From positions 1-64,000 of the forward strand of contig CAVYKI010000012.1 in assembly GCA_963769025.1 (NCBI GenBank): a stretch of DNA of 64,000 nucleotides, read 5' to 3'. Source of the stretch: an uncultured Verrucomicrobiae bacterium (lineage in GTDB: Bacteria > Verrucomicrobiota > Verrucomicrobiia > Chthoniobacterales > Chthoniobacteraceae). This document shows, in pieces, positions 28,404 to 52,302 of the stretch (the first letter of the stretch is position 1; each line of letters starts with the position of its first letter). Below the pieces are notes generated by a model. The model searched no databases, was not told where the DNA came from, and saw only the letters and a list, made by a program, of their open reading frames with translations. The position numbers and the translations under genes were made by a program.

Positions 28404-28499
28404 CGTGCGCGCACTATCCGCGCCGCTCCTGAAAACACAACTCCGCCGCCACCGCACTCGGCCTTTCCAATTTTCCATCCGCCGCTAGGTTGATTCACC

Positions 28500-29838: not shown

Positions 29839-31631
29839 TCCAGCATCGTCCCCGGCTTGTAGCGGTAGAGCAGATAGACGCGGACCTTGCGCAGCGGGAG
29901 TCCGTGCTGCTCGAACTCGAACGTGGTCTTCAATTCCCAGCGCTCGAAGGTGTGCGTGAGCGGGTCGAACGGGATCGTCTCGAACTCGCGGTCGGTGACG
30001 TAGATCGCGGTGCGCCCGGCGAAGCGGCTGGTGCCGTATTCGCGCGAGTCCTGCTGGTCGTTGATGACCGGCGCCTTCCGGTCCTCGTATTCGTCGTAGC
30101 GGCCCCAGAAGTGGAACTGGTTTTCCGGCACCGGCGATTCCGGGACATAGACGGCGGGATGGCCGGGCGCCTCGATGCGCTTTTCCGGAAGGTAAAAGCA
30201 CAGCGCGCCGGCGGTGCCGTAGCTGTTCGCGATGAGGAATGTCCTCTGGCCGCTTTGCTCCTCGATGGCCTTGCGAAATGCGCCGACCCGCTCCGCAACT
30301 TCGCGCCAGCCGCGCAGGCGCGCGCTGGGGTCGCGCTTGAACGGCAGCGGGATGCCGACTGCGCGGAGGAGGTCCGAGTTCACCGCGACGGCGCTGATGA
30401 GGAACCCGAGCGCAAACGCAATGACGGTGAACACCCGCACCCCGCGGATGTCCCTGAGGACACGATCCAACCCGTACGCGACGGTGAGGACAATCAGCGA
30501 GACCGACGCCGGCGCAGTCCAGTTCGGCTCACCGTTATGATGGAGCGCGAGCCACAGGTACACGAGCAGCAGCGGCAGCGCGAATGCCGAGAGGAACCGC
30601 GACTTCCACGGCGTGTTTGGCGCTTCCTTGCGCACGTAGATGAAAATCAACGCGGCCAGCACGGCAAGGAACACGCCGGCCTTATGGAACGATTTCGCCT
30701 CGAAGAAATTCCCGGCCATCCACAGCGCGGCGAGCGCGATTGCCAGCAGCACCCACCCAACCCACGCGGAGCGGAAACTCCGCGGGAACGCCGTGAGCGC
30801 CTTTGCGAACGCACTTCCCCACCGGCGGAAGGACGCCCCGGTGGCAGCCCCGAGCGCCATCAGCATCGTGAAGAAAATCAGCGGCGAATAGACGAGGAAA
30901 TGCGCGCCGACGAATTCGGCGACGGATGCGAAATCAAATGCCCACCACGCCTTTTCGAGACCGCCGCGCGCCGCGAGGTGCATCGTCGTCGGCCAGCCGC
31001 GCGCCTGGTTCCAGACGACCATCGGCACGACGAATGGCGCGAACGCGAGGAGCATCGACCAGAAGCCGGGCCGGAGGAGTTCCCAGCGGAAGCGCGGCGT
31101 GAGCAACAGCAGCAGGAACGCCGACGCGAAGAACGCGGCGTTCGTCATTTTGCAGAGGAAGCCCAGCCCGGTGAGGATGCCCGTGAGCGCCCACCACCAC
31201 GAAAACGCGGGGCTTTTCTCCAGCGCCAGCCAGAGCGTGCAGAGCGACGCCGCCCAGAAAAAGATGGAGGGCCCGTCGATGGTCATCAGCAGCGCGCCGG
31301 CGTTGAAGATGGGCGTCACGCTCATCACGATCACGGTCCAGAATGCGACGCGCGCGTCGTAGATGCGCCGCGCGAGCCAGTACACGAGGAGGGACGTGCC
31401 GAGCGCAAAGAGCGGCGCGAAGAAGCGGACGCCAAATTCCGTGTGGCCGAACAGCGCCGTGCCGATGCGCATGATGACCGCGATGCCGGGGCCCTTGCTG
31501 AAATACCACCAGTCGAGCCGCTGGCTCCATTCGTGGTAATACGCCTCGTCCGGCAGCAGGCCGACCTGCGCGATGTACACGAGCCGCAGCACCGTGAGGA
31601 CGACGAGAAACGCGAGGAGGCGGATGTTCAT
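29835..31631 (-). CDS. GT-C glycosyltransferase (ArnT/PMT_2-like)
   Basis: LLPDEAYY.EWS..LDW.YFSK.P, EFGVR, TIDGP, GLGFLCK; many TM helices. Confidence 0.85.
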   Translation of the reverse strand: MNIRLLAFLVVLTVLRLVYIAQVGLLPDEAYYHEWSQRLDWWYFSKGPGIAVIMRIGTALFGHTEFGVRFFAPLFALGTSLLVYWLARRIYDARVAFWTVIVMSVTPIFNAGALLMTIDGPSIFFWAASLCTLWLALEKSPAFSWWWALTGILTGLGFLCKMTNAAFFASAFLLLLLTPRFRWELLRPGFWSMLLAFAPFVVPMVVWNQARGWPTTMHLAARGGLEKAWWAFDFASVAEFVGAHFLVYSPLIFFTMLMALGAATGASFRRWGSAFAKALTAFPRSFRSAWVGWVLLAIALAALWMAGNFFEAKSFHKAGVFLAVLAALIFIYVRKEAPNTPWKSRFLSAFALPLLLVYLWLALHHNGEPNWTAPASVSLIVLTVAYGLDRVLRDIRGVRVFTVIAFALGFLISAVAVNSDLLRAVGIPLPFKRDPSARLRGWREVAERVGAFRKAIEEQSGQRTFLIANSYGTAGALCFYLPEKRIEAPGHPAVYVPESPVPENQFHFWGRYDEYEDRKAPVINDQQDSREYGTSRFAGRTAIYVTDREFETIPFDPLTHTFERWELKTTFEFEQHGLPLRKVRVYLLYRYKPGTMLD

Positions 31632-32278
31632 GCGGTGGTCGAAAGCAGTGAGGGAAAGCGCGTGGCGAGCGCGGGCGCGAGCTTGCTGCCCAAAGGCGCG
31701 CCAGAGCGCTTCCGCGAGCAGCAGCGTGAGCAGCGCCATGCCGAAGCCGAGGCAGATCCCGCCGAGCACATCACTCGGCCAGTGCGATCCGGTGTACACG
31801 CGCGAGTAGGCGACGAGCAGCGCCGGGAAAAATGCGATCCATCCGCGACGGCGGAAAAAGATCGCGGCCAGCAGCGCGACACACGCCGTGTTCGCAGCAT
31901 GGTTCGAGGGAAACGAGCGCCCCCCGGCCTGCGGCCCGGAGCCGTCTGGAAATCGTCTCAATCACCGGGGCAAAGACTCCCTTCCACGGCGGATGCGCGA
32001 GCGATATCTGCCGCACTCCGGCTTCAATCTGATGCGGCCGCAGCCGCGCGACTGCCTTTTTGATCAAGTTGCCCGACGATCGCGTCGTAGAGCGCGACCG
32101 CCAGCAGCGCGACGACGACGAGCGCCCGCCCGCGAAATCCGCCGAGCACGAGCACGGCCAGCACGAGCGCCACGAGCGGCACCGTCCAGAGCGCGGAACT
32201 CGATGCGACGGTCATCACCCGGTCGAGAACCGCGCCGGTCCATTCACGGTTGATGAGAAAAAGTAGCTTTTGATCCAT
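31628..32278 (-). CDS. PAP2 family phosphatase; frameshifted
   Basis: KKAVARLRP, SFPSNHA and YSRVYTGSHWPSDV motifs across joined frames. Confidence 0.85.
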
Positions 32279-33021: not shown

Positions 33022-33918
33022 CTACTTCGGAATCGTAGCGATGATCTCGCTGGCCACGCGCCGGTTGATCTTCACCGCGACATCGACCTTTTTCCCGTCG
33101 AACTCCTCGATGCCCGCCGCATCGACCTCCAGCTTCGCCATGCCCTTGGTGCGCCCGGCCGTGGAAGTCGGATCCACCGGCACATCCATCTCCACGGTGT
33201 ATTCCGAGTGGAAATGGCGGCCCTTCACGTTCTCGGGAAGGTTCGTCAGCGACACGCCCTTGCCCTCGATCTTCGCATCCATCCGCACGGAATACGCAGG
33301 CTGCTTCTCGAATTCGCCGAGCATCAAAAGTTTCGCGTGCCCGCTCACGCCGGAAGGATCGAGGCCCGTGACACCGTTCTGCGCCAGCGAGGCGACCGCG
33401 GCCTTTGCATTCACCGGCCATTCCGCGCCGATCGCGACTTTTTCCGACGTGCCGAAAATATCCTCGTCGCTCACCTCGTCCTCCGCCTGCACCGTCAGCA
33501 GCGACTCGATGATCTGGGCCTGCACATCGTCCGCGGCCTCGCCATTCACCTGCGCCTCATTCTCCGGTTCGTCCCGGCGGAGGAAAAGTTCGTCGCCGTC
33601 GCTGAAAATTCCCACGGGCTGTCCGCCACGCACGCACTCGACAGTTTTCACCTTCAGCCGCATCGCGCTCGGCAGGCCCTTCTTCGTCACAGCGAGGACG
33701 GTGAGCGCGCCCGTCAGCCGGCAAGCCACGATCGTCTCATCCGACTCCACCTCGCGTCCGTCGATGCTCGTCTTCATGCTGTCTTCGTAGGCGACCTTTG
33801 CCGAAATGTCGAAACGGTCACCGGCCTTCACCGGCCGCAGCAGGCGAATCTGATGCACGTCCGCCGCAGCGGCCGTGGAGATGAACAGGCAGAGGGCGAG
33901 AAACGTGCGTGCGATCAT
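33022..33918 (-). CDS. Exported hypothetical protein
   Basis: Signal MIARTFLALCLFISTAAAA; SD-like GAAGGAAGG upstream; beta-rich body. Confidence 0.7.
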   Translation of the reverse strand: MIARTFLALCLFISTAAAADVHQIRLLRPVKAGDRFDISAKVAYEDSMKTSIDGREVESDETIVACRLTGALTVLAVTKKGLPSAMRLKVKTVECVRGGQPVGIFSDGDELFLRRDEPENEAQVNGEAADDVQAQIIESLLTVQAEDEVSDEDIFGTSEKVAIGAEWPVNAKAAVASLAQNGVTGLDPSGVSGHAKLLMLGEFEKQPAYSVRMDAKIEGKGVSLTNLPENVKGRHFHSEYTVEMDVPVDPTSTAGRTKGMAKLEVDAAGIEEFDGKKVDVAVKINRRVASEIIATIPK

Positions 33919-33990
33919 GCGCCTTCCTTCGCAGAAAACGCGCCATGCGCCAGCGCAGATTCGTCCCGGACGCCCGGCGAGTCGCCCGCC

Positions 33991-35108
33991 TTACGCCGGC
34001 ACCGGCTCGGCGCCCGCGTACTTTCGCCATCCACTCGCGGTGCACCTTCGGCGAAATCTCGCTCGGCTTGATCTCGCTGCGCCCGCCCCAGAAGACGTTC
34101 GTGTAGCTCACCGGGATTCCGCACGCCTCGAGATGATCGTCGATCGCCTTCTTGTGCAGAAAGCACGCGCTCCTTCTCCGTGCCGTGGCAGACCGCCATG
34201 ATGTTCACATTCGCAAAATCCGGCCCGCCCTCGCGCCAGTAGCAATGCGTGAGAATCTCGTGCCGCCCGGCCTCCGCGCCCGCGCGCTCCTGCATCCCCT
34301 CCGGCACACGCCAGTGGAAGAGCGCGTTGAATTTCGTCACCCGCTGCCCGCCCTGCGACGGCTTCACGTGTTCGAGGAACGTGCTGAAGCGCCCGATCAC
34401 CTGGCGCTTGTTCAGATCCTCCGCGACGCGGCAGAACGTCTCCACGTCCACGCCGATTTCCTTCGCGCGATCCGCCCACAGGCCCGTGCGGATCTCGTCC
34501 GGCGAAAGTTCGCGCTTCAACGCCAGCAGCACCTCCCACTCCAGGTCGCTCAGCTTCACGATCCCCACCGGGATCATCCGCGCAGGCTCCGGTGACTTGT
34601 CGCCGGGCTCGATCACCTTCCGGCGCACATGCCCCACGCCGAGCGCGAAGATTCCCTTCGCCGGCATCAGCTTGAATTTCGTGCAGCCTGTGTGGCGCAT
34701 CAGCACGCGCGCATGTTCCTCCATGTTCGTGCCGGTCGGCGTCTTCAGCGTCGTCCAAAGGCGGTACATGCTGCCCGTCGTCTGCCCGTCGGTGCTGCGC
34801 ACCACCACATGACCGCTGAACGGATCATTCTTGAACATCCAGTCAAACGCGTCGTTCAGCTTTTCCTCCGGCACCTGCCACGCGACGAGCGCGCCCTCGG
34901 CGAGATTTGACGCCACGAGCGTCTGCCGCACGCGCCGGATCGTCCCCGCCGACAGCATCGTCCGGATCCGCTCCAGCACCGTCTCCAGCGGCACGCCGCT
35001 CTTCTGCGCGATCTCGATGAATGGCTCGCGCACGAAGCCCTGAATCTTGTCCTCCGAGGTGGCGAGGATTTGCGAGTTGATGGGATCGCTGTGTTCGATG
35101 CTGGACAT
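33991..35108 (-). CDS. Fused siroheme decarboxylase-like protein (AhbA/B, NirDL-type; Lrp/AsnC fold); frameshifts near 34160 and 34022
   Basis: Two tandem HTH + RAM-like units, with GHVVVR...YRLWTTL and THCYWRE...NIMAVCHG. The end is inferred as ...KYAGAEPVPA* (TAA 33991-33993). Confidence 0.7.
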
Positions 35109-35228: not shown

Positions 35229-38200
35229 TCAAGCCGCAGCCATCTGCCGACGACGCCGTGCCGCGAAAAGCCGCCCGGCAAGCGCGAGCAGCACCGCCAG
35301 CCCTGCAAAAATCGCGACCCGCATCCAGCGCTCGGCGATCTGCGGATCGGCGAAGGAAACTTCGAGCACCGCGCTGGCCTTCGCCTTTTGGAAATGGTGC
35401 ACGCGGCCCGCCAGCGGAAAATCCACCGCAAGCGAGAGCCGTCCCATCTGCTGCACGGCCTGGAGTTCCGCATTCATCGAAACACCCGCGCCCGCAGTCG
35501 GCACGGTCGCCGCCGCCAGCGCGCCGGGACCGGTTACGCCCATCCGCACGGTTCCTCCGTTCGCGGTTGAAAATGACATCGTCGTCCTCGGCTGCGCGGT
35601 GACGACGGGCGGCAGGTTCGGCGTGGTTGGCGCCGGGGTACTCTGAGGCGGAGTCTCGGCTGTCGGCCTTGCCACCGGCTGCGGTGCGCTGGCATTCGAA
35701 AGCACCTGCGCCTGCTCCATCTGCTGCTGCCGGTTCCCGCGGGCGAGATTCAGCGTCCGCAAATTCTCCCCGTCGCTCTCCGCATCCTTCCTGCCTTTTT
35801 CCTCACCGGATGCGACCTTCTTCCCCTCCTGATCGTCCCCCATCACCTTCAGCTTCCCGGCGATGTCCATGGGTTCCGCAATGTCGGCGGGCTTCCCTGG
35901 CTTGCCATCCGCACTCTCCTTCACACCCCCCTTGAAATTGCTCGCGCCAGTCAGTTCCAGCGTCCCCGCGCCGCTCTTGTTCAGGACAGCGACACCCTTC
36001 CCGGTCTTCGCCTGCTGCAGCACGATGTTGTCATTCAGGTAAAAATTCCGCTTGTCCCCGGCCGTCGCCTCCTCGGGTGCCGTGGGCTGCGCCGGGGCCT
36101 TGTTTGCAGGATTCTCAGCCCAGCGTGTGTTCTGGACATTCGAGACCGCGCTGTTGCCCTGAATACCGAGAGCACCATTGTCGAACTGCTGCGCCACGCC
36201 GCCCTGCCCGGCGACGACCGTCCCGTTGGTGATCACAATGTTGTTCCCAGTCGTCGCGTTGCTGTTGAGCGTCCCCGCATTGATGTTCGTCCCGCCCGAG
36301 TACGTGTTGTTCCCGAAAAGCAGCACCTGCGCGCGATTCTGATTCATCGCGCCCTGCTGCACCTGCAGGCCATTCGCATCCGTGAGCGCGGCGGCCTGCT
36401 GCTGCGGAAGGTTGCTCTCATTGGACTGCCCCTCCCGCTGCTGCTCGATGCGCCTGTTGTCCGCCTCCACCTTCGCGAGCTGCTGGCCGACATAGGTGTT
36501 CGTGTCGCTCAATTTCTGCACGAGCGCCTGCTGATCCTTCCCGACCTCGTCCCGCTGACCCGATGAATAGCGGTCCACCCGCAGCACGTCGCTGTTATAT
36601 GCCACCTGCTTCTGCACCTCCGCGCATTTCATCGCCCAATTCAGCTTCGCGTTTGCGCGCACCTCCTCGCTCACCGTCGGGTCGGCGATGATCCCATTGA
36701 GTGCCGCCAGTTCGTCCACCGCGCTGCGCGCCTTCTCGACTTCGCGTGCCACTGCCACGACTTCCGCCATGTTCCCTTCGCTCTTTGTCAGCGAGCGGCT
36801 GTCCGGCAGCCATACGGACCAGAATGTCTGCTCCACCGTGATGCCGATGAGTTCCGCGTCGTGAAAATTCCGCTTGTCCCGCGGCGCGAGCTTCGCGCCC
36901 GACTGCTTCCACACCACCTCCACATCGTAGCTCACATCGCCCGGCCGCGTCTTGATCAGCGGGATGAGGATCGCCTCGCGCCCGTTCACCTTCCCCGAAT
37001 CAGCCCGCACTCCCTGCCCCGCGACCTTCGCGCTCACGAGCACCGCGCCGTCCGGCAGTTTCACCGGGAGGAATTGCAGCGAGCGGTTTTGCAAATGCCA
37101 CACCGCCTTGTGCCACTCCGTGCCGTTCTCGCGCAGCGCCGTCGTCATTTCCGCCCACGCGCAAAATGCCGTCCGCACCTCCGCCTTTTCCAGCCGCTCC
37201 AGCACGAGCGCGACCTTCCACACCGGCTGCACGCGGAAAATCCCCGCGCTCTTCGTCACCGACGGCAGCCACGGAATCGCCGACGCCTGCGCGGGCTCCG
37301 CGCCATCGGTCTCCAGCTTCAGCTCGTACTCGCTCGCATTGTCCGCGATCACGTAGCCGGTCGTCAGTTGCGACTCGGGAAATTCCGGCGCGGGCAGCGC
37401 GATCTCGTTCACCTTGCGCCCGTCCGGCTTCTTGCCCTCGGCCATCGTCAGATCCACGTCCACCGTGAAGTCCACCGTGTCGTACACATCATTCTGAAAC
37501 GCCACGTCGTAAATCCGCCGCTCGCCCTCCACGCGGGTCCGCGTCTCGCGCACTTCGGGGCCCGTCACCTTCGCTTCCGGCAGCGCAGCGGGGAGTGAAA
37601 AGGTCGTCCGCTCGATGCTCCCCTGCCGCAGCGTCACCTGCACCTTCATGCTCCACGACACCCACGACTCGAACGCCTGCGCGTGCATCATCCAGGTCGT
37701 GTTCTGCTTCACCGGCAGCGCCGCGAGCGTCACCTGACCGGAGAATTTCTGGTTCTTGAATTCAAACCCGCGCTTCCGCTCCAGCGGCGGCAGGATTTGG
37801 AAATCCGGCGCAGCCTTCGCCGGGTCCACTTCCTTCGCTGCATCCACCGCCTCCGCACCGTCGAGCGAGAGCGAAGCGCTCACGCCCTTGTGCGCCGCGA
37901 TCACCGCCTCGCCTGTCACCTTGGAAAATCCATCCAGCGCGAGAGGCTGCACATCGAGCTGCTGCGGCGCGGCGGCGTATTCGCGCACGAGATACACCAC
38001 GAGCGGCGTCATCTCCGGCGTCGCGTCCTTGAACCGCACGCGCAACTTTTGCCCGTCGCGCCACCAGTCCTGGAGGCGGACGCTGTCCACCGCCTGCACG
38101 TCGAAATTCGCCGGCAACGTGAGCGACACATCGAAAAGCGGCGCATCCTTCGCGTGCAATTGCAGCGACGCGATGAGTTCGATTTTCCGCCGGTTCACCT

Positions 38201-39434
38201 GATACACGTAATCCACGCGCGCCTCGTGTCCCGACTCCGCGAGCGAAGTGCGATAGCCCAGCGCCCCCGCTCCCGTCCACGATCCCGCGAGCTTCACGCC
38301 TTCGCGCGCCTGCTTCGCGAGCTGCACCTGCCGCAGCACCGCATCCGGCTCCGGCACGACCGCGATGCCCGCGCCCGAATAAAGCGCCAACGTGCGATTC
38401 ACACGCCGCGCCGCGGGCGAAAACTGCGGCACACTCCGCGTCGCCGGGAACACCGTCGCCTGCGCCCGCTCCGTCGCGAACGCCAGCCGGAAGCTCCCCT
38501 TCGCCGGCTCCGCAAGCTGCACTTCGAGCACCTGCTTTGAATCGCCATCCGTGAGCTTCCACGACTTCATCCCCGGCGCATCCAGCATCGCCAGCGCGAG
38601 CCCCTTTTCAAAGCTCACCGAAAACCGATCCTGCTGCGCATCCGCAAATCCGAACGCGATCTCCGTCTCAAACCGCTCATACCCCGCGAGCGCCAGCGCC
38701 GCCGTCTCCACCTCCGCAGTCGCAGGCTCCACGACCCGCGCCACGCCCTCCGCCTCGACGAGCGCCACCGAGATCCGCCCCGTCGTGCCGAGCGCCGCCG
38801 TCACCGTCTTCTTCCCATCCGTCACACGCTCGATCACACCCGCATCCGGCGCGATGCGCGCCGACCATCGCGTCTCCGGCAGCGTCAGCACCAGCCGCGT
38901 CGCTGCCGTGCGCGGGATGCCCCACGAAAATTCCCGCGCCCCCGCCGCCAGCGGAATCTCAAACGCCGCCGTGAGCGAATGCCTGCCCGGCTTCTCCACC
39001 ACGAGCGCGCCATCCGCAAATGCCGCCGGCTTCCCGTCCACCGCGAGTTCGCTGATCTGCACGCCCTCGAACGGCAGCGGCACTTTCACCCACGCCTCGT
39101 CGAACGTCGAAAACTCCAGCGTCACCGAAAACGCCGCGCGCTTTTCCTCCACGCGCCCCTCATACCGCGCCGCCCCCAGCGCAAACGCCGCCGCCGCAAA
39201 CGCCGCCTTCTCCGGCGTCCGCGTCTTCTTCGCCGCCTCCCACAATTCGAGAAAGCGATCGTATTTCAGATACACCTTGTCCGGATGCTGATCCGCCACC
39301 GGCTTCTTCGGATCGTACGGAACAATCACCGTGTCGCGCGACTCCGGCCGCATGGCCTGCGGCTTCTCCGCGCGCACACCGACGTTCCCGACGCAAAACA
39401 GCGCCAGCATCATCGAGAGCATCCAAGGTTTCAC
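35229..39434 (-). CDS. Giant exported protein C (~1400 aa), unknown function, with C-terminal TM anchor and partial PATR repeats
   Basis: GTG overlaps gene B's stop (GTGA). Signal MKPWMLSMMLALFC, repeated beta modules, Gln/Asn-rich insertion, then a C-terminal TM helix and RRRR. Confidence 0.8.
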   Translation of the reverse strand: MKPWMLSMMLALFCVGNVGVRAEKPQAMRPESRDTVIVPYDPKKPVADQHPDKVYLKYDRFLELWEAAKKTRTPEKAAFAAAAFALGAARYEGRVEEKRAAFSVTLEFSTFDEAWVKVPLPFEGVQISELAVDGKPAAFADGALVVEKPGRHSLTAAFEIPLAAGAREFSWGIPRTAATRLVLTLPETRWSARIAPDAGVIERVTDGKKTVTAALGTTGRISVALVEAEGVARVVEPATAEVETAALALAGYERFETEIAFGFADAQQDRFSVSFEKGLALAMLDAPGMKSWKLTDGDSKQVLEVQLAEPAKGSFRLAFATERAQATVFPATRSVPQFSPAARRVNRTLALYSGAGIAVVPEPDAVLRQVQLAKQAREGVKLAGSWTGAGALGYRTSLAESGHEARVDYVYQVNRRKIELIASLQLHAKDAPLFDVSLTLPANFDVQAVDSVRLQDWWRDGQKLRVRFKDATPEMTPLVVYLVREYAAAPQQLDVQPLALDGFSKVTGEAVIAAHKGVSASLSLDGAEAVDAAKEVDPAKAAPDFQILPPLERKRGFEFKNQKFSGQVTLAALPVKQNTTWMMHAQAFESWVSWSMKVQVTLRQGSIERTTFSLPAALPEAKVTGPEVRETRTRVEGERRIYDVAFQNDVYDTVDFTVDVDLTMAEGKKPDGRKVNEIALPAPEFPESQLTTGYVIADNASEYELKLETDGAEPAQASAIPWLPSVTKSAGIFRVQPVWKVALVLERLEKAEVRTAFCAWAEMTTALRENGTEWHKAVWHLQNRSLQFLPVKLPDGAVLVSAKVAGQGVRADSGKVNGREAILIPLIKTRPGDVSYDVEVVWKQSGAKLAPRDKRNFHDAELIGITVEQTFWSVWLPDSRSLTKSEGNMAEVVAVAREVEKARSAVDELAALNGIIADPTVSEEVRANAKLNWAMKCAEVQKQVAYNSDVLRVDRYSSGQRDEVGKDQQALVQKLSDTNTYVGQQLAKVEADNRRIEQQREGQSNESNLPQQQAAALTDANGLQVQQGAMNQNRAQVLLFGNNTYSGGTNINAGTLNSNATTGNNIVITNGTVVAGQGGVAQQFDNGALGIQGNSAVSNVQNTRWAENPANKAPAQPTAPEEATAGDKRNFYLNDNIVLQQAKTGKGVAVLNKSGAGTLELTGASNFKGGVKESADGKPGKPADIAEPMDIAGKLKVMGDDQEGKKVASGEEKGRKDAESDGENLRTLNLARGNRQQQMEQAQVLSNASAPQPVARPTAETPPQSTPAPTTPNLPPVVTAQPRTTMSFSTANGGTVRMGVTGPGALAAATVPTAGAGVSMNAELQAVQQMGRLSLAVDFPLAGRVHHFQKAKASAVLEVSFADPQIAERWMRVAIFAGLAVLLALAGRLFAARRRRQMAAA

Positions 39435-42400
39435 GCCAGCACCTCCTTCTTCACCCGGAACACGCACCACGCCCCGACCCGGTTCAGCACCAGCCCTGCG
39501 AGCCAGCCGCCGAGCAGCGCATTGCACACCGGCATCCACGCCACGCTCACACACAGCGGCACCGCGGACAGCACGAGCACCGCCCACAGCGTCCGCCACC
39601 ACGGTCGTCTCGACGCCACGAGGTAAAATGCGACCCCTCCCGCGACGAACCAGATCCACAACGCCCGCGCGCGGCTCCACCAATCGTCATACCGCATCTC
39701 CAGCCGCTCCGGCGCATACAGCCCGTCAAACACCAGCGCCGGCCCCGTCTTCGGAAGATCGAGCGTCACGGGCAGAAGACCCGCGGTTTTTCCTCCGCGA
39801 TACCATCCGCGCGCGCCCGATTCGGGAAGTCGGGATTTCAAGGTTTGGAAATTGCTCACGTCGTCCGTCTTGGTTTGCGGCTTCGCCGGAGCCGCCGGTT
39901 CAGGTTGCGCAGTTGCGGTCTGCGGAGCCGGCGCCTTCGGGGCGAGTTTCCCGTCCAACTCGCGAGCCGCCAGTTCGCTCTTCGTACCTTCCTGGGCGGC
40001 CTTCCGCCCATCTTCAAACCGCCCTCTCATGCTTCCCGGCAGTTTCTCCAACGCCTTTGCGCGATCCAGTTGGTCTGCATCCACGTTCATGTCGGTTATT
40101 CCCGGACGGTGCGACTGCGCGGCAGGCATCTCTTCGTTGTCCCACATCACCTGTCCTGCCGATTCACGCGCAGCCTTCAGCGTTCCCAAACTGAGCTCAC
40201 CCAGCGCGCCGAGCGACACGCGCCCAATCGTCCGCACCAGCAATTCCTCATGCGGCGCTTCCGGCACCGGCAGGTTGCTCTCGATGTCCGAGAACGAAAA
40301 TCCCTCCGGCACCCACACGCGCCACGTGCTCTTCAGCACCGGGATGCCCGTGGCGATGGATGGCGCGTTCAGCGCGAGCTTGCCGCGATTTTTCCAAGCA
40401 CCGCCCGTCGTCTCGTACACGAGCGCAGCGATGACTCCGGTGTTCGCGTCGCGCTTCGCCGGGAGCGGGAGACGCACGCTGCCGGGGCGATCCTCCACCG
40501 TCACGGGCTTCACCGCGGTGCCGTCAATCGCCGCCGAGAGCAGCGCCGCGCCCTGCGGCAGAGCCACGTCGAAGTATTCCACGCCCGAGGCGCGCAGCCG
40601 GTAGATGGCCTCGTGCCGGTGCGTGCCGCTCGTGGATATCACCGTGTTCAGTTCCAGCGCGTCCACCACGGCCGCGAGCATCCCCGCGGGCGCGTGCCGC
40701 ACGCCGTTCAGCGTGAGCGCGTAGTCCGCGCCGAGCCAGCCGAAGACGCCGATGACGCGGTGCCGCGGCGCGTAGTCCGCGAGCTGCGGCGCGAGCAGCG
40801 AGTCGAGTTCGTTCATCCCGACCGCGTCGAAGCGAATCTCCGTTTCCGTGTTCGCCTCCACCGCCCACAGCCCGCTCGCGCGCACGACATCGAGCGGCGA
40901 AATCACCGGCACCTTCACCGCAAACGAATAGCCCTTCGCGCCATTTTTCCCGTCGCCCGCCTGCTTCCCCACCGGCACCTGCGCGGCGATGCTCAGCGCA
41001 TAGTTCCCCGTGAGTTCCTTTTGGAAAGTGACCGTCCACACGTCGCCGTCGAGCGCGCGCTCGGCGACTTGCGGTCCTTCAAAATGGAAGTTCTGCGCGA
41101 TGTCCTTCGGCACGCGAATCTTCACCGCGCGCGTGCCGCCGCCGAGGAACTGGTAGTTCATCACCGCATGCACATCGAGCACGCCTTCGAGCGGCAGGAC
41201 GTAGCCCGTGAGCGCCGCGAGCACCTCGGACGGACGCCGCGCGATCTTCGACCGTAAGATCGAACGCATCGCGCCGGAACCACGCATACTCGCCCTGCAC
41301 CGGTGTGCTGCGCCCGTCGCGCCGCTCCAGCGTCTCGCCCGGCTGCGCCTCGATGCGAAACGCCGGGTCCGCCGTGAGCGCGATGTATCCCGTAACCTTC
41401 GCCGAGTCCGCGATCTTCGCATCGCCGAGCGTGATCGAAATCCCCTCCGCCGGAAGCTGCGTCCATTTCTCCGGCTCGATGCGCGTGCGCACGCGGAACA
41501 CGCGCGGCTTCACGGATTCGTCGCTCCACTTGATGAGCACCCTGCCGCCCTCGCGCGTCCACTCCGGCTCGGTTTCACTGCCCGCGATTTGGCCCGGCAG
41601 GATTCCCTGAGCCGCAGGCTGGCCCGCGACAGGCTTCACTTCCTCGATGCGCCGCACGTCCAGAAACTCCTCGCTCGCAGGGAGCGTGATCGCCGCGGAA
41701 AAGCGACGCCCCTTCTGCTCCCGCAGCGTCAGCGTGCGCGTGACGAAAATCGCGTCCGAACGAAACTCCACGAGCGTGTCGAGGTCGCTCTCCAGCCCCG
41801 GCACCGCGCGCTCGATGACCACCTTCGGCGCAACGCCGCTGCCGGAAAATTCATACGCGCCGAAGAACCCGCGCTCGCCGCGATCCTCGGGAGTCGGCAT
41901 CCGCCGCATCCGCGCATCGGCGGTCACGTCCTTGATCGTCACATTGTCCGCGCCCGCGATGTGCAGCTCGCCATCGAGCCGCGACGCGCCCTGCAACACC
42001 GGCATCGGCAGCACCGTCGCCGCCGCGTCCTTCCCGATCAGCGGCTGCAACTCCACACCAATTTCCAGGTCGAGTTCCTTCCGCGCACCGTCCTGAAACT
42101 TCGCGACAATCTTCCCGCCCGCCGCCTCCCACCCGCGCAATTCACCCGCGCGCACCGCGAGCACCTTCACCCCCGCAGGCAGCGCAAACTCGAACGACAG
42201 CGGCAAATCGCCGAGCGGAGCTTCGAGGTGAATCCGGTAACTGCCCGCGATTTTCTCCGCATCAATGTCGTAGCGCACGAGCGCCTGCGCGCGCACGGGA
42301 ATCTTCCCGTCATTCTCTGCGCCGCCCTTCCACGCAAACGCCACCGCACTCCGCGCCGGCGAAAGCGCGACGGTCGCCGTGGTGGATTCCGCAGTCTTCG

Positions 42401-43160
42401 TCACCCGCACCGCATCGCCGAGTTTTTCCATCGTCGCACCCGCGGGCAGCGCGAGCGTGAAGGAACCCGCCGCGACGCCCGGCACACCGAGCGCCAGCGT
42501 GCTGATCCCGCCCGCTCCCGCGATCGGCGCGGTGATTTCCAGCGTGACCTTGTGCTCGCCGCGTCCGCGCAACAGCAGGAGCGCGGGCCTCTCAGGCGCG
42601 ATCATTTGTTTCCCGCTCTGCGGCTGCGCGGCCTGCGGCGGCGGCGCATCCCGCAAGACCGGATTCCGAGCCGTGAGCACGCCTTCGCCGTCGAGCTTCA
42701 CCTCGCCGATGGCCGCGCCCGCAAAGTCGAGCGGCAACGAACTCCAGCCGTTGCGCAGCACGTTCACACGGAGTTCCGCATGGATCACCGCCGTCTTCCC
42801 ATCCGGCACCGCGCGAAATTCCGCGCTGGAAATCGCAGCCGCAACGGGCGCCTCGGATTCCGGCTTCTTCTCGCGCTCCGCATCGCGGAGAAGCGCCTCG
42901 TACTGCTCGCGCGTCAGCAGCACCGCATTCTTGTCGAGCACATGCCCGAGCTTGTCCACCGGCACCCAAAGCTCCCGGCGATCCGGCGGCTTCGGCGCGG
43001 CGGGCTCCGCGCGCGCCGCGATGGATGGAAGCACCAATGCGATCAGCAGCGCGACGAAAACATGTAGCCGCGCTTGTAAAAGCGCGGGCACTCTTTGCAT
43101 TCGCGCGGGAAAATCAGCCCGCGCCTTTACAAGCGCAGCTACGATCGGTTTCGCACTCAT
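39431..43160 (-). CDS. Giant exported protein B (~1240 aa), paralog of A and C; frameshift near 41250
   Basis: ATG overlaps gene A's stop (ATGA). Joins ORFs 41079-43448 and 39431-41422; three C-terminal TM segments. Confidence 0.78.
43064..43142. repeat. GTAG-type REP doublet (REPIN-like)
   Basis: GTAG-CCGCGCTT-GTAA-AAGCGCGG at 43064-43087 and an inverted copy with 2 mismatches at 43119-43142. Confidence 0.75.
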
Positions 43161-46100
43161 GGCTGCGCGGGCGGCTCGGTAGGTTTCGTTTCCTGCGCAG
43201 CCTGCCTTGCCGCAAATCTCTCCGCGCGCTTCTCCGCCTCCTCGGCGGCGAACTTCGCGGCCAATGCCTGGCGCTCGCGCCGCCGCTCCATGCACGCGGC
43301 CAGCCAGGCGCGGATTCCGCAGATCAGCCAGATGCCCACGCCTGCGAACACGCCGATGGACGCCATCTGCCACGGCCCGGCAGAGCGCGGATTCACCGTG
43401 CCGGAAACGACCAACGCGCCGAGCCCGACGAAAATGAAATACGCCCACTTCGCTCCGCGCTCGCGACGCAAGAGCGCGATGGCCCCGGCAAACGCCAGCA
43501 GCGCCGCCATCGCCTCGACGAGGAACGCGAACGTCTTTCCGCGATGCGACACACTCACCGTCGCGGGCGCATCCATCCGCCGCAGATCCGCGCGCACGCC
43601 TTCCTTGCGGAGTTGCGTGTCGAAGCCCGCGCGTTTCGGCGGCGGCATCGGCGGCGTGGCGACATTCTGCACGTTCAGCGCGGACGGCGCAGCCGGGCCG
43701 ATCTGCGGGAGGTAAAACCGCAGCCCGCGCGCAATCCGTTCCCAGCCGAACGCGCCCACGTCCTCGCGCATCGCCCCGCCAAAATCCACGTAGCGCTGCG
43801 AGGCCGGCAGGAAGAGCGTCCAGTGCGTCTGCAGCACCTTCACGTCGGAGAGCCGCGGCGGCTCCAGGTCAAAATTCCCGCGCCAGCCGAACTTTTCGCC
43901 CGGCTTCGCGCTCGGCACTTCATAGACGAAACGCACGGGGAATTCCGCATTGCCGTCCTGCCGCGCTGGCAGGCGGATGAGCACTTCGTTGCGATCCGGC
44001 CGCTTGCTCGGCTGCTGCGGTTCGCCATTTACGAACGCATCGCTCAGGAGCCGCGCCTGCTTCCCGCCGCGCGACGGGAGCTGGATGCTGAAGAACTGCT
44101 GCGAGTTGTTTTTCACCCAATAGATCACCTCGGTCGTCTCCGCCGCGTCCTCGGCGATCACGCTCGTGAGCACCGCGCTCGTCACGATGGCCTGCGGCAC
44201 GTCGAGGTAGAGATTCTTCGACACGCTCAGCGAGAGCGACACGGGATGCTGGCTGTATTTGTAGGCGAGGAAAATCCCGTCGCGTTGCAGCGCGGCGTTC
44301 AGCTCCTTCGGGTCAATCGTCTCCAGCCCCTTCGAGTCCGTCTTGGTGAATTCGAGGTTGCCGTCCTTCAGCACCGCGACCTGTCCCGTCTCGCGGAAAA
44401 CGCCGGGCGTCTTCACCTCGTGCAGCGTCACGGGCAGCACCACGCCGGGCTTTTGCTCCGCGCGCGCCGCGTCGTGGGAAAAGGTGAGCGTGTGCGCGCC
44501 GAGCACCTTGTCCTGCAGCACGACGCGCCAGATCACCGCGCCCGTCGGCTGCCCCGCGGCATCGAGCGCGTCGCTCTTGATGCGCTCCTTGATGTTCGCA
44601 CCCTCGATTTGCAAATCGTCCGCGATCGCCTTCGGCACCTCGACGCTGAACTCATTCACGCCCGGCAAACTCCACGTTGAAATTCACAATCCACGAATGC
44701 CGCGTGAGCGTCTCGCGCACATCGAGCAGCGTGAGCACATCGGCGGACACGCGCGGCTTGCGCAGCTCGAATGCGATCTGCGCCGCCTTCACCGCCGCCG
44801 CCGACTGCGAGCGATATCGGAAGCCGATCGTGAGCGGCGTCTGCGCGGGATTCGCCGCCACCATGCCTTCGAGATTGCGGATGTCCTCCTCGCGCATGTC
44901 GCCCTTGTCCGTCGTGTTCGCCTTCAGGCTCAGGTGAATGGCGAGGCCCACCTTTGCATCGTGGCGCTCCGCGGCGAGCGGATTGAAAACGGGCACCGTC
45001 ACCGCGTCGCCCGCATTCGCGCGCGGCGCATCGGCCGTGAGATGAAATTGAAACACACCGAGCTGGCGCGACTTGAACTTCACGCTCATCACGCGCTTGC
45101 CGCCCGACCTCCGCCACCGTGCTGCTCTCGACCATCGGGCCGACCGCCTCCTCATTCCGATACCCGGCCGGCAGCTCGATCTGCACCCCGAAGATGCCCG
45201 CCTTTTTCACCGTGTAGCTGAAGCGCGTGTTCAGCGTCAGCGTCTCCGTGCCGACCGTGAGCAACGACAGACTCGCCACTTCCACCTGCGGTTTTGCCTC
45301 GGTGACATTCAGCACGCCCGCGTACGGCAGGCGCAGATAGCGGTAGCTGCCCACGAGCCCCGGCTGCGTTTTTCCGTCCTTCGTCAGCGCGACGCCCTGC
45401 TGCGTGAGGTTCTGGAGATCCGACGGCTCGACGACCAATTCCGCGTCCGCATTCACCGTGATGCTCCCGCTCTGCCGCTCGACATTCAGCGCCGACACGA
45501 CCGGCAGCGCGGGCTTCTGCGGCAGCGCGCCGAGCGCGGCTTCCAGCGTGAGCCGCAGTTGATACGAGTCCTTCGCAGGAGTGTGCAGCTCGATGTGAAT
45601 GCCCTGCCCCGCCTGCCCCGCGACGCCCGCCGCCGGCTTCCATTCGCGGATATTCGCGCCCTCGACGCTGAGCACCTGCTGGTCCAACGGCACCGTCACG
45701 TCAAACGCACTCACACCTGTGCGCAGGATGCGGTAGCTCATCGTCACGTCCGTCCGCAGCGCGCCGCCGCCCACGCGCACGACCGTCTGCGCATCCGCAA
45801 AAAGCAGCGCGGGCAGCGCCGTCTCGCCGCCCTTCTTCGCCCAGGAAATCGTCACCTGCTGCGAAGCGCCGAAATACACCGAGAGCTTCGTCCCCTCGCC
45901 CTGCTCCACGGCGCTGAACGCCGACGCCGGCGTGATCGTGAACTCCAATCCCTTCTCCGGGATCGTGAGTTCAAACTGCGACACCGCCGTGCCCGGCAGC
46001 TTCAGCGGCAGCGTCGCGCGCCCCTTGTCGCGCGTGACCTTTCCAAAGATGACCGCATCGAGCGTGTATGCGCCCTTCTTCGGAAAAATGATCGTCTGCC

Positions 46101-46551
46101 CGTCCTTCGTCGCATTCAGCAGCGCCGTCGTCTTTGCCTCCGCGAGCGCGAGATCCGTCCCGAGCGAAATCTGCGACCAGCCCTCCTTCAGCGCCTCGAA
46201 GTTCACCTTCGCCTTTATCTCCGCAAGATCGCCCTCCACTTTCCCCGAGTAAGTCGCGCCCGCCACCACGCCATCCACCGGCGGCTCCGTCTTCTTCAGC
46301 TTGTCCGGCAAATTCACCTTGTTCCACATCTCAAGGAATTCGCGGTACGGCAAAAACACGCCCTGCTCCTGTCCGGCGAAAACTTCCTCCAGCTTCTCGA
46401 ACGGCACAAAAATCGTCTGCTCCTTCGTGATGACCTTCGGCGGCTGCACGGGCGCAATTGGTGGCGCAGGCGGCACCGGCGGCGGCTCCTGTGCGGACGC
46501 GATCACGAGCAGCGCCGGAAACAACAGCGCGAGGAGACGGAGGATTTTCAT
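43157..46551 (-). CDS. Giant exported protein A (~1130 aa), unknown function; frameshifts near 45110-45155 and 44660
   Basis: Signal MKILRLLALLFPALLVIASA. Joins ORFs 44656-46551, 44652-45155 and 43157-44668; three C-terminal TM segments and a charged tail. Confidence 0.8.
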
Positions 46552-46987
46552 GCGGAGGGAATCTTGCCGAAAGTGCTCCGGCGATTGTCAGGTTTTGGAG
46601 CGGCGGTTGTAAAAGAATTGTCAGTCCGCGGCGAGACATTCCATCCGCGGGCGTCATCCGCGGAATGAGGACCACGCACCGCGTTACGCACCACGCCCAT
46701 GCGCACCGCACCCGGCTGGGCCAGGCGCCGGACGTTTCCCCAAACGCCCGGCGCCCTCCCCGCCTTTCGCGGGATGCCCCCTTGTTGACGGATCGTGAGA
46801 ACGCTCCCTCACCTCCCGGATACCGCGTTTCGCGCCGTTTGTTACCGAGGTTGAGCAAAAATCTTCGTGGACCGGCTCATTTTGAGGTCACTCCGGCTCT
46901 TTTGCCCGGAACAGAGCCCGCGAAGCGGTTCGTCGCCCAAATTCACCTTGCCCGACCCGGCTCCCGCTTTAAGTATCCTCCTCCGAC

Positions 46988-47514
46988 ATGAGCACCACCA
47001 CACCGGCCGCCTACGACTCGAAGATCGAGGGCAACATCATCTTCACCAAGGTCGATGCCGCCATCAACTGGATGCGCAAAAACTCGCTCTGGCCGATGCC
47101 GATGGGCCTCGCCTGCTGCGCCATCGAGCTCATGGCCACCGGCGCGTCGCGCTTCGACATCTCGCGCTTCGGCGCGGAGGTCATGCGCTTTTCGCCGCGG
47201 CAGAGCGACGTGATGATCGTCGCCGGCACCGTCACCTACAAAATGGCGCTCGCCGTGAAACGCATCTGGGACCAGATGCCCGAGCCGAAATGGTGCATCG
47301 CCATGGGCGCCTGCGCGTCAGCAGCGGCGGCATGTATCGCAGCTACGCCGTGCTCCAGGGCATCGACCAGCTCATCCCCGTGGACGTCTATATCTCCGGC
47401 TGCCCGCCGCGCCCCGAGGCGCTCATCGAGGGCCTGATCCGCCTCCAGCGGAAGATCGACGGCGAGAAGTCCTTCCTCGCGCAGAAGCCGGAGCTGGTCG
47501 CCGCCTTGAGTTAA
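46988..47514 (+). CDS. nuoB: NADH-quinone oxidoreductase subunit B; frameshift near 47320
   Basis: [49 protein letters not shown]. Confidence 0.95.
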
Positions 47515-49944: not shown

Positions 49945-51603
49945 TCACGACACCATCCGGCCGAGGCACTCGATGAGGTAGGGGAGGAGCTGTTTTTTAC
50001 GCGAGACGATGCCGTCGAGCTGCCAGATGAAGGACGGGTGAATGACGGGCGATGGGATGGTGGAGAGGAAACGCTGGTCGCCGCGCACGAGGAGGAGGCT
50101 GCTGTGCGTGGTGATGTCCGTGACGAGGAGCGCGGCGAAGAGCAGGCCCTCGCGCTTTTGCCGGGCCTCGAGCGCGGCGAGGAGGGCGTCGCGCTTTTCG
50201 TGGAAGTGGACGAAGGTGAGTTCCTCGACCTGAGCGACCACGAAGCGGTGGCCGTTCTCGGTGTAAGGTTTTGAATCGGCGTTGATGGCCTCCTCGGCGG
50301 AGAGCGTGAGCAGCGGGCTGCCGACGCTGAAGAGTTCCTTCGCGTAAATATCCGGGTCCACTTCGGCGGCCTTCGCGAGTTCGTCGCGGATTTTCCGGTC
50401 GGTCGGAGTCGTCGTCGGTGAAGTCAGGTTCAGCGTGTCGCTGATGAGCCCGGAGAGCAGCACGCCCGCGATTTTCCACGGGACGGGGATGCCGGCATAC
50501 TGGAAGCAGAGCGCGACGATGGTGCTCGTGCTGCCGACGGGGTTGTTCCAGAAATGCACGGGCACGCGGCTCGTGAAGCCGCCGAGGCGGTGGTGGTCGT
50601 AAATTTCCACGATGGGGACCTGCTCCGCGCCGGCGACGGCCTGGTCGAGCTCGTTGTGATCGACCAGGATGAGCTGGCGCGGAATTTCCTTGATGAAATC
50701 GGACTTCGAGAGGATGCCGCAGAGCTTGCCGTGGTCGTCCACGACCGGGAAGACGAACGCGCTGCTGTCCGCGGCCGTGCGGCGCGCCTCGGCGAGCCGG
50801 GTGTCGCGGCGGTAGGAAAGGAAATTCGTCTCGACCATCCGGCCGGCACGCACGGCACCGCGGCTCATGAGCACGGTGGTCGCGGTGTCGGTCGGCGAGG
50901 AAAGCAGCGTCACTCCCGCGGCGCGCGCGGCGATTTCCACCTCGGGCTCGACGGCGTGCGCGCCGGTGACGACGATCGCGTGCGCGCGAAGCTCGATGGC
51001 GAGCTGCTGGATGTGCGGACGGTCGCCGACGAAGACGACGACCTTGCGGCCCTCCTCGGCGTAGCTTTTCAGACGCGGGCCGAAGCTGTCCTGCCGCATC
51101 GCGCCGACGAGCAGGAAAAGCTCCTCTTCCACGGTGGAAAGTTCGCCGCAGATGAGCTGTCCGCCGACGGTGCGCGCGATGTCCGCAAGCGACGCGGTGA
51201 CGATGCGCGCCGCGCCCGCCCCTTCGCGTGGCGGGAAAAGGTGGTGCATGATCTTGTAGGCGTTCAGCAGGCCCATGCAGCGATGGCGGTTGTCCACGAC
51301 CGGCAGGCCGCGGAGCTGGCGACGGTCGATGAGCTGGATGGCGTCGTAAATCGGCGTGTCCACATGCACGCTCACCACGTTTGGCTGCATCACGTCATTC
51401 ACGCGCGGGCTCAGGTCGCTGAGCAGCATGGGCGCCTCGGTGCCAAAGCGCTGCAGTGCAAAATCGATCCGCGGATTGGTCGGCCCGCAGCGCGCGGCGA
51501 TCACGTCGAGCCAGCCGCTCAGGCGCTTGAGTTCCGCGCAGCCGATGGCCGAGCAGATGGAATCCATGTCGGGATTCTTATGGCCGATGACGATGGTTTG
51601 CAC
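49945..51603 (-). CDS. ppaC: Mn-dependent inorganic pyrophosphatase, family II, with CBS-DRTGG insert
   Basis: VIGHKNPDMDSICSA, CBS pair and DRTGG (VGDR), LVDHNE, DHH, GSTSTI, SDTL..SPTTT, SRKKQLLP. GTG start at 51603. Confidence 0.92.
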   Translation of the reverse strand: MQTIVIGHKNPDMDSICSAIGCAELKRLSGWLDVIAARCGPTNPRIDFALQRFGTEAPMLLSDLSPRVNDVMQPNVVSVHVDTPIYDAIQLIDRRQLRGLPVVDNRHRCMGLLNAYKIMHHLFPPREGAGAARIVTASLADIARTVGGQLICGELSTVEEELFLLVGAMRQDSFGPRLKSYAEEGRKVVVFVGDRPHIQQLAIELRAHAIVVTGAHAVEPEVEIAARAAGVTLLSSPTDTATTVLMSRGAVRAGRMVETNFLSYRRDTRLAEARRTAADSSAFVFPVVDDHGKLCGILSKSDFIKEIPRQLILVDHNELDQAVAGAEQVPIVEIYDHHRLGGFTSRVPVHFWNNPVGSTSTIVALCFQYAGIPVPWKIAGVLLSGLISDTLNLTSPTTTPTDRKIRDELAKAAEVDPDIYAKELFSVGSPLLTLSAEEAINADSKPYTENGHRFVVAQVEELTFVHFHEKRDALLAALEARQKREGLLFAALLVTDITTHSSLLLVRGDQRFLSTIPSPVIHPSFIWQLDGIVSRKKQLLPYLIECLGRMVS

Positions 51604-51692
51604 GGCGCGGAGGAAAGCTGCGACCGTGCCAGCGGGGAAGGACAAACCGCGCAGGACCGGTCCGATCTGCCCGCCGAGCAGAGCAGATCGAC

Positions 51693-52247
51693 CTACGCGA
51701 CCTTGCGCCGGGAGGCCTTCGCTTTCGAGGCGTAGCCCTTCGGCGTTTTGGCTTTCGCTTTCACCGCGTGGGAGGCGTGTTTCACCACCGACTTGCCGGC
51801 GCTTCCCTCCTTCTTCGCGGGCTTCGTGGCTCCCGCCGGGAACTCGTCGATTTTCACGATGGTCGCCGGGCGGCTGACGTAGAAGGACACCTGCGATTCG
51901 ACCGGCTGCGTGGGAAGCCACACGGGGGTCGAGAGCCGCTCGGACATGATCCACCATGGATTCGCCGGCGTGCAGCAGTCGCGATAGATGACGGCCGTCT
52001 CCTCGCCTTCGGGGTTGAGGCGGAGCCGCGAGCGGTAGCGGAATTTGAAAGTGACGACCTTGTGCTCGACGTTGGCATCCTGCAGCGCCTTGTGCAGATT
52101 TCCGGCGTAGGCCACATCCGGGTTTTGCACGCCGGGGCCGATGCGCGGCACGGCCCGGACCGTTTGCCAATTGCGTGAGGGCTGCGGAGTCCCGCAGCCT
52201 GCGAGGAAGATGGCGGCCGCGGTGGAGAGGAGGACGAACTTTTGCAT
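51693..52247 (-). CDS. Hypothetical lipoprotein
   Basis: Lipobox FLAG|C after a short signal; Lys/Ala-rich tail. Confidence 0.7.
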   Translation of the reverse strand: MQKFVLLSTAAAIFLAGCGTPQPSRNWQTVRAVPRIGPGVQNPDVAYAGNLHKALQDANVEHKVVTFKFRYRSRLRLNPEGEETAVIYRDCCTPANPWWIMSERLSTPVWLPTQPVESQVSFYVSRPATIVKIDEFPAGATKPAKKEGSAGKSVVKHASHAVKAKAKTPKGYASKAKASRRKVA

Positions 52248-52302
52248 CGAAGTGGTGGAATGATGTCGCGGCGAGTGGGCAAGGCTGCCGCGCTCCCGCC
52301 AC

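Follow-up and report, generated by a model that had tools for sequence, protein, structure and literature searches.

Three Coupled Genes on the Minus Strand

The subject of this study is a three-gene locus of an uncultured Verrucomicrobiae soil bacterium, which lies in a window of 64,000 nucleotides (positions 1 to 64,000 of contig CAVYKI010000012.1, assembly GCA_963769025.1; "the window" is used below for this whole stretch of DNA). The minus strand of positions 35229–46551 was found to contain three consecutive long reading frames in the order A-B-C. A first-pass annotation, made from the sequence alone, had proposed that three paralogous, exported, and membrane-anchored proteins of about 1130, 1240, and 1400 amino acids are encoded here in a translationally coupled operon. 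Lengths of about 1130, 1241, and 1401 amino acids were obtained (Table 1), and both proposed couplings are present in the sequence as read directly, i.e., ATGA at 43160–43157 at the A/B junction and GTGA at 39434–39431 at the B/C junction. A Shine-Dalgarno-like sequence for C overlaps the last codons of B. The ending KEV.A is recurrent among the B orthologs, which may reflect the ribosome-binding site of C. A scan for promoters and terminators gave counts at chance level, and the single sigma-70-like match upstream of A compares with 1.1 sites expected from shuffled sequences, and thus is no better than chance.

A, B, and C Are Colinear Paralogs

A comparison of the A, B, and C pieces with blastp yielded colinear matches with 22–28% identity over 130–590 amino acids. 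In profile-profile comparisons with hhalign, for which the profiles were built from orthologs (37 A, 20 B, and 25 C sequences), all three pairs were aligned with a probability of 100, namely A with C over 843 columns (E 6.6e-70), A with B over 839 columns (E 1.5e-67), and B with C over 829 columns (E 3.4e-60). The claim of significant pairwise homology and of one shared colinear architecture was thus confirmed, with an identity between the paralogs of only about 20%. A quick maximum-likelihood tree was calculated from the last approximately 300 residues of the arrays, using 75 rows (the window and 24 of the 80 loci described below, with three proteins each). The A, B, and C families were each found on one side of a branch, with SH-aLRT values of 99.2, 99.4, and 100, indicating that the triplication predates the divergence between the Chthoniobacterales and the Verrucomicrobiales that were sampled. 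Judged by sequence comparison, A, B, and C are anciently diverged, colinear paralogs.

The common layout consists of a signal sequence, a conserved N-terminal motif, two beta domains, three repeat modules, a final sandwich, a linker, a hairpin, and transmembrane (TM) helices, and in each protein the beta-sandwich domains form an array of approximately 850 residues. In the A family three tandem modules of about 180 amino acids were delimited, M1 (residues 244–421), M2 (422–597), and M3 (598–793; numbering of the A ortholog from locus L001). They are homologous to each other by hhalign, with mutual probabilities of 98.2, 98.7, and 94.2 (E 1e-7 to 2e-16), in agreement with the earlier count of "about three repeats." The final module (794–940) was not detectably related to M1–M3 in hhalign (probability below 4).

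The Gene Order Is Conserved in Verrucomicrobiota

A scan of species-representative genomes yielded 102 confirmed relatives of C, and 80 loci were kept, all of which belong to the Verrucomicrobiota. Of the 46 loci in which 7.5 kb or more of sequence precede C, 44 have the order A-B-C on one strand. The two exceptions are L066, in which A is cut by a contig end, and L069, in which A and B are absent upstream. With the start codon taken as the candidate nearest to the upstream stop codon, a choice that favors short distances, B and C had a 4-nucleotide overlap in 28 of 38 loci and overlapped or were at most 30 nucleotides apart in 37 of 38; the respective numbers for A and B were 11 and 33 of 36. 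These counts support the view that the paralogs have been kept translationally coupled. A further conserved neighbor was not found in the 79 of 80 loci with an assignable A, B, or C open reading frame (ORF), and the largest cluster of flanking genes comprised 7 loci. The flank clusters examined encode an ABC ATPase, RF3, a sulfatase, a Ser/Thr kinase-FGE fusion, and an LpxL-heptosyltransferase fusion, all of unrelated function.

Among the 44 syntenic loci, 9 have B and C in one stop-free frame. The fusion junctions retain the B hairpin motif, three hydrophobic segments, a signal-like segment of C, and the N-terminal motif of C, a sequence arrangement that fits a chain re-entering the periplasm. 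The first-pass annotation had asked whether the trio is conserved or fused elsewhere; within the Verrucomicrobiota both were observed, L069 being the exception. An exhaustive superfamily profile search in a library of 1.84 billion proteins returned 7552 cluster representatives at E ≤ 0.001, 5147 at E ≤ 1e-10, and 2458 at E ≤ 1e-30. Two full arrays per chain (1955–2822 amino acids), with a TM block between them, were present in 52 of the best 150 representatives.

The regions between the arrays and the B linkers of some relatives contain additional domains. DUF1559, a pseudopilin-like domain typical of Planctomycetes, was found between the arrays of two of the 18 representatives scanned (P0178 and P0213, E 1e-52 and 3e-49) and below the threshold in P0193; P0178 and P0213 have extra hydrophobic segments before it. 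Three B-C fusions of Verrucomicrobiales (L057:7481-10060, L063:7562-10060, and L046:10193-12820) carry TPR in the B linker and also STN (secretin/TonB N-terminal) domains, two or three per linker, which scored 46.9, 40.2, and 36.4 bits versus a Pfam cut-off of 28.4, together with weak matches to FecR_C and Secretin_N. The window's own B has neither TPR nor STN in Pfam. The sequence of these linkers suggests that they could dock to outer-membrane or periplasmic partners.

Predicted Export, Membrane Anchors, and Structure

Hydropathy analysis revealed a hydrophobic, signal-peptide-like N-terminus in each of the three proteins and hydrophobic segments at their C-termini (2–3 in A, 2–3 in B, and 1 in C), in line with the signal peptides and the C-terminal TM anchors that had been claimed. 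The hairpin motif that had been noticed before the TM segments of B and C was found to be conserved among the orthologs of both. In 35 B orthologs G47 and G54 are invariant and G35, L43, and P44 nearly so; the nearly invariant residues of the C motif are R41, P49, G52, F57, K59, and K61. For A, a hairpin was predicted at the equivalent position with AlphaFold2. The linker between the final sandwich and the hairpin differs greatly in length: that of A has about 50 residues, that of B about 155, and that of C about 435. The C linker contains a coiled-coil-like stretch and autotransporter-associated beta-strand (PATR) repeats, which were detected with 34.3 bits by TIGR02601 (cut-off 19.85) and with 24.7 bits by PF12951 (cut-off 27). 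Cysteine is nearly absent from the ectodomains of A, B, and C.

Structure prediction with AlphaFold2 was performed for the A ortholog of L001 (1146 amino acids, 37-row alignment). The model is all-beta (pLDDT 80, pTM 0.40), with many very long strands of 23–28 residues, and ends with a hairpin and three helices. The C-terminal 354 residues of the window's A gave a confident, compact model (pLDDT 89.7, pTM 0.77) with the elements listed in Table 1, of which the cytoplasmic helix is long. The six best fold matches of this unit in the PDB were all Ost1/ribophorin I chains, with E values from 1.8e-8 (6ezn_A) to 1.2e-6; they comprise 289–320 columns including the membrane helix and are weak (TMq 0.35–0.40, root mean square deviation 12–17 Å). 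The next matches of the final sandwich were the N-domains of M1 aminopeptidases (E about 1e-6, TMq about 0.30). For the full-length L001 model, the top matches were integrin alpha legs (E 5e-11, TM-scores 0.12–0.17) and other stalks of Ig-like domains (PrgB), which as a group had E values of 5e-11 to 1e-9 and TM-scores of 0.10–0.17, and a further match was again Ost1/ribophorin I (E about 1e-8, TMt 0.25–0.32). With E values up to 1, no match of the Pfam family Ribophorin_I was found in the six window pieces, and the 35 A C-terminal sequences had none even with E values up to 10, a search in which the HMMER filters drop many weak matches. On the basis of these models, the likeness to Ost1/ribophorin I is a fold-level lead and not membership. 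Comparison with ribophorin-like and aminopeptidase-N-terminal sandwiches had been suggested by the first-pass annotation, and these folds did come up as top matches of the A C-terminal unit, with weak TM-scores. A complex prediction with the C-terminal units of A (320 amino acids), B (126 amino acids), and C (81 amino acids, as partner) from 35-row alignments had a score of 0.01 versus a mark of 0.32; limited to these units, it counts neither for nor against binding.

Table 1. Coordinates of the three genes and of their sequence features in the window.
Feature	Position	Strand	Remarks or basis
Gene A	46551..43157	(-)	About 1130 amino acids; three frames: 46551-45104, 45104-44662, 44668-43160
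Gene B	43160..39431	(-)	About 1241 amino acids; two frames, switch near 41247-41257; ATG overlaps the TGA of A
Gene C	39434..35229	(-)	1401 amino acids; intact; GTG start overlaps the TGA of B
Sigma-70-like promoter match	46584..46613	(-)	TTTACA-18-GACAAT, 9/12 matches; 33 nucleotides upstream of the ATG of A
Shine-Dalgarno-like AAGGAGG for C	39442..39448	(-)	7 nucleotides before the GTG of C; within the last codons of B (K-E-V-L-A)
A, signal-peptide-like N-terminus, residues 1-21	46489..46551	(-)	Hydropathy
A, C-terminal unit (final beta sandwich, short helix, hairpin, three-helix TM bundle, cytoplasmic helix)	43160..44221	(-)	AlphaFold2
A, TM block (residues 379-460 of piece A3)	43289..43534	(-)	Hydropathy and AlphaFold2; weak LiaF-TM match
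B, pre-TM hairpin motif GLLPxxLxLPxxG...F.G	39722..39781	(-)	Ortholog alignment
B, TM block	39461..39670	(-)	Three hydrophobic segments; conserved CNALLxGWL
C, PATR repeat in the linker	36264..36317	(-)	TIGR02601, residues 1041-1057
C, pre-TM hairpin motif GRxSLxVDFPxEGxVxHF	35391..35444	(-)	Ortholog alignment
C, single C-terminal TM helix, then Arg cluster	35256..35330	(-)	Hydropathy and orthologs

The Arrays Do Not Match a Known Family

Searches with Pfam and NCBIfam gave nothing above threshold for the arrays, the exceptions elsewhere in the proteins being the PATR repeat of C and a LiaF-TM match of A that stays below the threshold. These searches also gave no enzyme family or catalytic motif in A, B, or C, as had been stated before, and no signalling output domain. 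No PDB sequence was matched by the A profile up to an E value of 10; that of C had 12 weak matches (best E 0.015), all of them in the coiled-coil/low-complexity linker. A characterized family that covers the array was thus found by none of these searches. The homologs returned (93 for C, 120 for A, and 38 longer A relatives) are named "hypothetical protein" in their sources and, in the case of C, also "autotransporter-associated beta strand protein"; one C homolog (P0037) is in addition labeled by JGI as "uncharacterized protein YbdZ (Mbt...". Homologs of A and C have no Pfam domain besides PATR, and many C orthologs are without a PF12951 call. Judged by the organisms named for the homologs, the window would belong to the Chthoniobacteraceae. 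The nearest look-alike clusters are unnamed hypothetical proteins of Acidobacteriota (0.93–0.95), and the best named cluster (0.83) bears LysM; neither was a usable lead. Full-text literature searches retrieved no description of such a family. No description of the family or of the three-gene system was found in the resources searched.

Several specific candidates were tried and rejected. PATR passenger repeats, a feature of autotransporters of type V secretion, are present in C only; an autotransporter was discarded, as no autotransporter barrel family was found and C ends with a single hydrophobic helix and an Arg cluster. For alpha-2-macroglobulin/TEP there was neither a Pfam match to the A2M families nor a C[GLS]EQ thioester motif, and TEP1r was found only at rank 45 of the fold matches (TM-score 0.09). 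BatD had no Pfam match at E up to 1. Sorting by PEP-CTERM/exosortase was dismissed because no NCBIfam model matched C at E up to 1 and no conserved PEP lies beside the helix. The LiaF-type TM domain reached 22.9–23.7 bits versus a cut-off of 27, and a weak match was present in 9 of 35 A orthologs.

Frame Breaks in A and B

In the window, A appears to be interrupted by two single-base indels (near 45103/45104 and 44661/44662), both at GGG runs, and B by one indel in a G/C-rich stretch (Table 1). There is no in-frame stop codon within any A or B piece, and the pieces share 60–81% identity with the intact single-ORF orthologs of L001. In the relatives, the three A pieces share one frame and the orthologs are single ORFs, for which reason programmed frameshifting was rejected. 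An unrelated DUF1552 (HXXSHH, PF07586) gene at window positions 28500–29835 (+) is split over two frames as well, with 28500–29420 corresponding to profile positions 1–151 of 307 and 28816–29835 to positions 156–307. This split suggests that the consensus sequence of the assembly contains indel errors. Because of the G/C runs, the unrelated gene that is split alike, and the intact relatives, the breaks in A and B are probably assembly indel errors.

Neighboring Genes

About 120 nucleotides after the stop codon of C, positions 33918–35108 (-) encode a protein with an AsnC-type ligand-binding domain and a NirDL-like helix-turn-helix (siroheme-decarboxylase-like). A 708-amino-acid fusion of PAP2 phosphatase and PMT_2 (GT-C type) glycosyltransferase domains is encoded at 29838–31961 (-), about 3.3 kb downstream of C. 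Neither of the two genes is a conserved neighbor of the trio in other loci. Further downstream on the same strand lies the gene for a 2104-amino-acid protein that consists almost wholly of TPR (22190–28501 (-); TPR_19 126 bits and TPR_14 107 bits, among others). Divergent from A, an ORF at 46867–47511 (+) is NuoB-like and covers only positions 80–127 of the 128-position Oxidored_q6 profile. ORFs upstream of it and overlapping it had no Pfam match, and it may be another broken or mis-started gene. Upstream of the trio, positions 49948–53697 (-) encode a pyrophosphatase-like CBS-DRTGG-DHH-DHHA2 protein of 785 amino acids and an FHA/response-regulator receiver protein of 464 amino acids. In another locus, a gene for an LpxL-type lipid A acyltransferase fused to a family 9 heptosyltransferase (L039:7140-9158) follows about 110 nucleotides downstream of C on the same strand. 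LpxL-heptosyltransferase-like ORFs were found near C in 5 loci (including L038, L039, and L041), in 4 of them on the same strand.

Discussion

It is proposed that A, B, and C form a co-translated, heteromeric scaffold in the periplasm that is anchored in the inner membrane, an interpretation to which we give about as much weight as to all other explanations combined. The three proteins would be translated from one mRNA with coupled starts, exported via their N-terminal signal sequences, and anchored in the cytoplasmic membrane by C-terminal helices, three each in A and B and one in C. Each protein would project its beta-sandwich array into the periplasm. The final sandwich of A would sit directly on the TM bundle, and those of B and C would be spaced from the anchor by their linkers. 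It is tempting to speculate that the graded linkers hold the arrays at different distances from the membrane, or serve as long tethers that let B and C pack onto A. The three arrays could then associate side by side or stacked to form one membrane-tethered scaffold, which would organize or dock other envelope components. The scaffold is suggested by the fixed gene order, the conserved coupling, the recurrent fusion of two arrays in one chain, and the lack of a detectable catalytic domain. It is also suggested by the periplasmic-type accessory domains (STN/TPR in B of the relatives, PATR in C) and by fold matches to stalk and scaffold proteins, i.e., integrin alpha legs, PrgB, and Ost1/ribophorin I. 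A stoichiometric heteromeric assembly, for example a scaffold, cage, or conduit in the periplasm, had already been put forward by the first-pass annotation. Ancient paralogy, fixed order, coupling, and two-array fusions are in favor of this idea; physical association of the three, its stoichiometry, and a cage or conduit would be further steps.

Several points weigh against a scaffold. Binding between A, B, and C is presumed, and co-transcribed paralogs can act separately. The placement in the inner membrane and the periplasm is predicted from topology logic, with export and topology deduced from hydropathy and the positive-inside rule. The fold matches have low TM-scores (0.12–0.40), and beta sandwiches are generic. 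The locus L069:10001-13858 contains a C homolog without A or B upstream; it is the only such locus with 10 kb of upstream sequence. In addition, the three frame breaks of A and B mean that the operon could be non-functional in this organism.

The last point leads to the view that A and B are pseudogenes that were inactivated by frameshifts and decay in this genome. Three breaks within 7.1 kb and the source's own gene call for A, a fragment of 631 amino acids (P0350), would be in accord with it. The positions of the breaks at GGG runs in A and in a G/C-rich stretch in B, the lack of in-frame stops, the identity of the pieces to the intact L001 orthologs, and the similarly split DUF1552 gene speak against it, and decay is deemed very improbable. 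Another explanation, which is unlikely yet carries the most weight of the alternatives, is that the trio represents three co-expressed periplasmic receptors or adhesin-like stalks that act independently, duplication having diversified their specificity for ligands. The low identity between the paralogs would be expected in this case, as would the differences in their linkers and in the domains added to them, with PATR in C and STN/TPR in B of the relatives; the sandwich of A on its TM bundle with a long cytoplasmic helix looks receptor-like, and the fold matches include integrin legs and, at low TM-score, ligand-gated channels. An order that is fixed in 44 of 46 loci and the conserved 4-nucleotide B-C overlap speak against it, the frequent two-array fusions fit an obligate partnership better, and a signalling output domain was not found by Pfam and NCBIfam.

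The proteins could also be a ribophorin-like, non-catalytic scaffold, on the lumenal or periplasmic side, of a membrane enzyme, either a GT-C glycosyltransferase or a lipid-linked-glycan enzyme, just as Ost1, Swp1, and Wbp1 form the non-catalytic scaffold for STT3. The six best fold matches of the A C-terminal unit, the presence of Ost1/ribophorin I among the matches of the full-length model, and the apparently common layout of a beta-sandwich ectodomain followed by C-terminal TM helices all point in this direction. So do the gene with PAP2 and PMT_2 domains on the same strand about 3.3 kb downstream and the LpxL-heptosyltransferase fusion gene directly after C in one checked locus of the 5-locus cluster. 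On the other side, Ribophorin_I of Pfam matched neither the window pieces nor the 35 A C-terminal sequences, TM-scores are below 0.5 at deviations of 12–17 Å, and no glycosyltransferase is a conserved neighbor. Furthermore, the N-domains of M1 aminopeptidases score almost equally, and thus the likeness may be that of a shared generic sandwich. The ribophorin-like scaffold is rated as very unlikely, on a par with decay.

The favored periplasmic scaffold would be of interest for several reasons. About 11 kb of coding sequence have been kept as a fixed set of three genes in two orders of Verrucomicrobiota, and they belong to a large superfamily that neither Pfam nor NCBIfam models, without a solved relative or a name beyond "hypothetical." The cell envelope of the Planctomycetes-Verrucomicrobia-Chlamydiae group is poorly understood, and a large and conserved periplasmic assembly tethered to the membrane would, if true, be a new part of it. 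A bolder version, which is only slightly less improbable than the two explanations just rated lowest, regards the trio as the core of an undescribed heteromeric envelope machine that occurs in Verrucomicrobiota and, fused, in related phyla. Its ribophorin-I-like, C-terminally anchored arrays would be the structural counterpart in bacteria, and possibly a distant homolog, of the non-catalytic scaffold subunits of the eukaryotic oligosaccharyltransferase (OST), or the trio would act as a heteromeric receptor in the manner of integrins. The task of the machine would be to organize a membrane enzyme or to connect the inner membrane with outer layers of the envelope. Were the likeness to Ost1/ribophorin I a matter of homology, it would be relevant to the question of where the non-catalytic OST subunits came from. 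Cultured carriers exist, namely Brevifollis gellanilyticus NBRC 108608 (L058), Verrucomicrobium sp. BvORR106 (L034), and Luteolibacter marinus (P0379), and thus the question is testable.

Comparison With Known Systems

The PATR proteins of Verrucomicrobia have their repeat in common with C, and some sources name C homologs accordingly. In contrast to them, the repeat makes up only about 20–60 residues of the C linker, A and B are without PATR, and no beta-barrel translocator was found. M1 aminopeptidases (ERAP2, APN, PepN) have an N-terminal beta sandwich that resembles the final sandwich of A, a likeness at the domain level only. Unlike these enzymes, A, B, and C have no peptidase domain, no zinc motif, and no match to Peptidase_M1 of Pfam. 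Integrin alpha legs and the Ig-like stalks of PrgB share with A the long beta-sandwich arrays and the C-terminal TM anchor, and integrins work as heteromers of anchored chains. The trio differs from integrins in the lack of a beta-propeller, an I-domain, and sequence similarity, and the likeness is that of a generic fold class.

Homologs of ribophorin I have reportedly been found in Asgard archaea. The window proteins exceed Ost1/ribophorin I 2–3-fold in length and contain an additional three repeat modules. A match to Ost1/ribophorin I was not obtained at the sequence level, and no linked STT3-type (GT-C) enzyme is conserved near the trio. In the part of a 2016 survey that deals with this question, BLASTp and HMM searches are described as having yielded no promising prokaryotic homologs of the non-catalytic OST subunits (PMC4973528). 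What A and Ost1/ribophorin I appear to have in common, judged by the weak fold matches, is a beta-sandwich ectodomain that is followed by a C-terminal membrane anchor. In its membrane complex, Ost1/ribophorin I works alongside other anchored subunits of the sandwich type.

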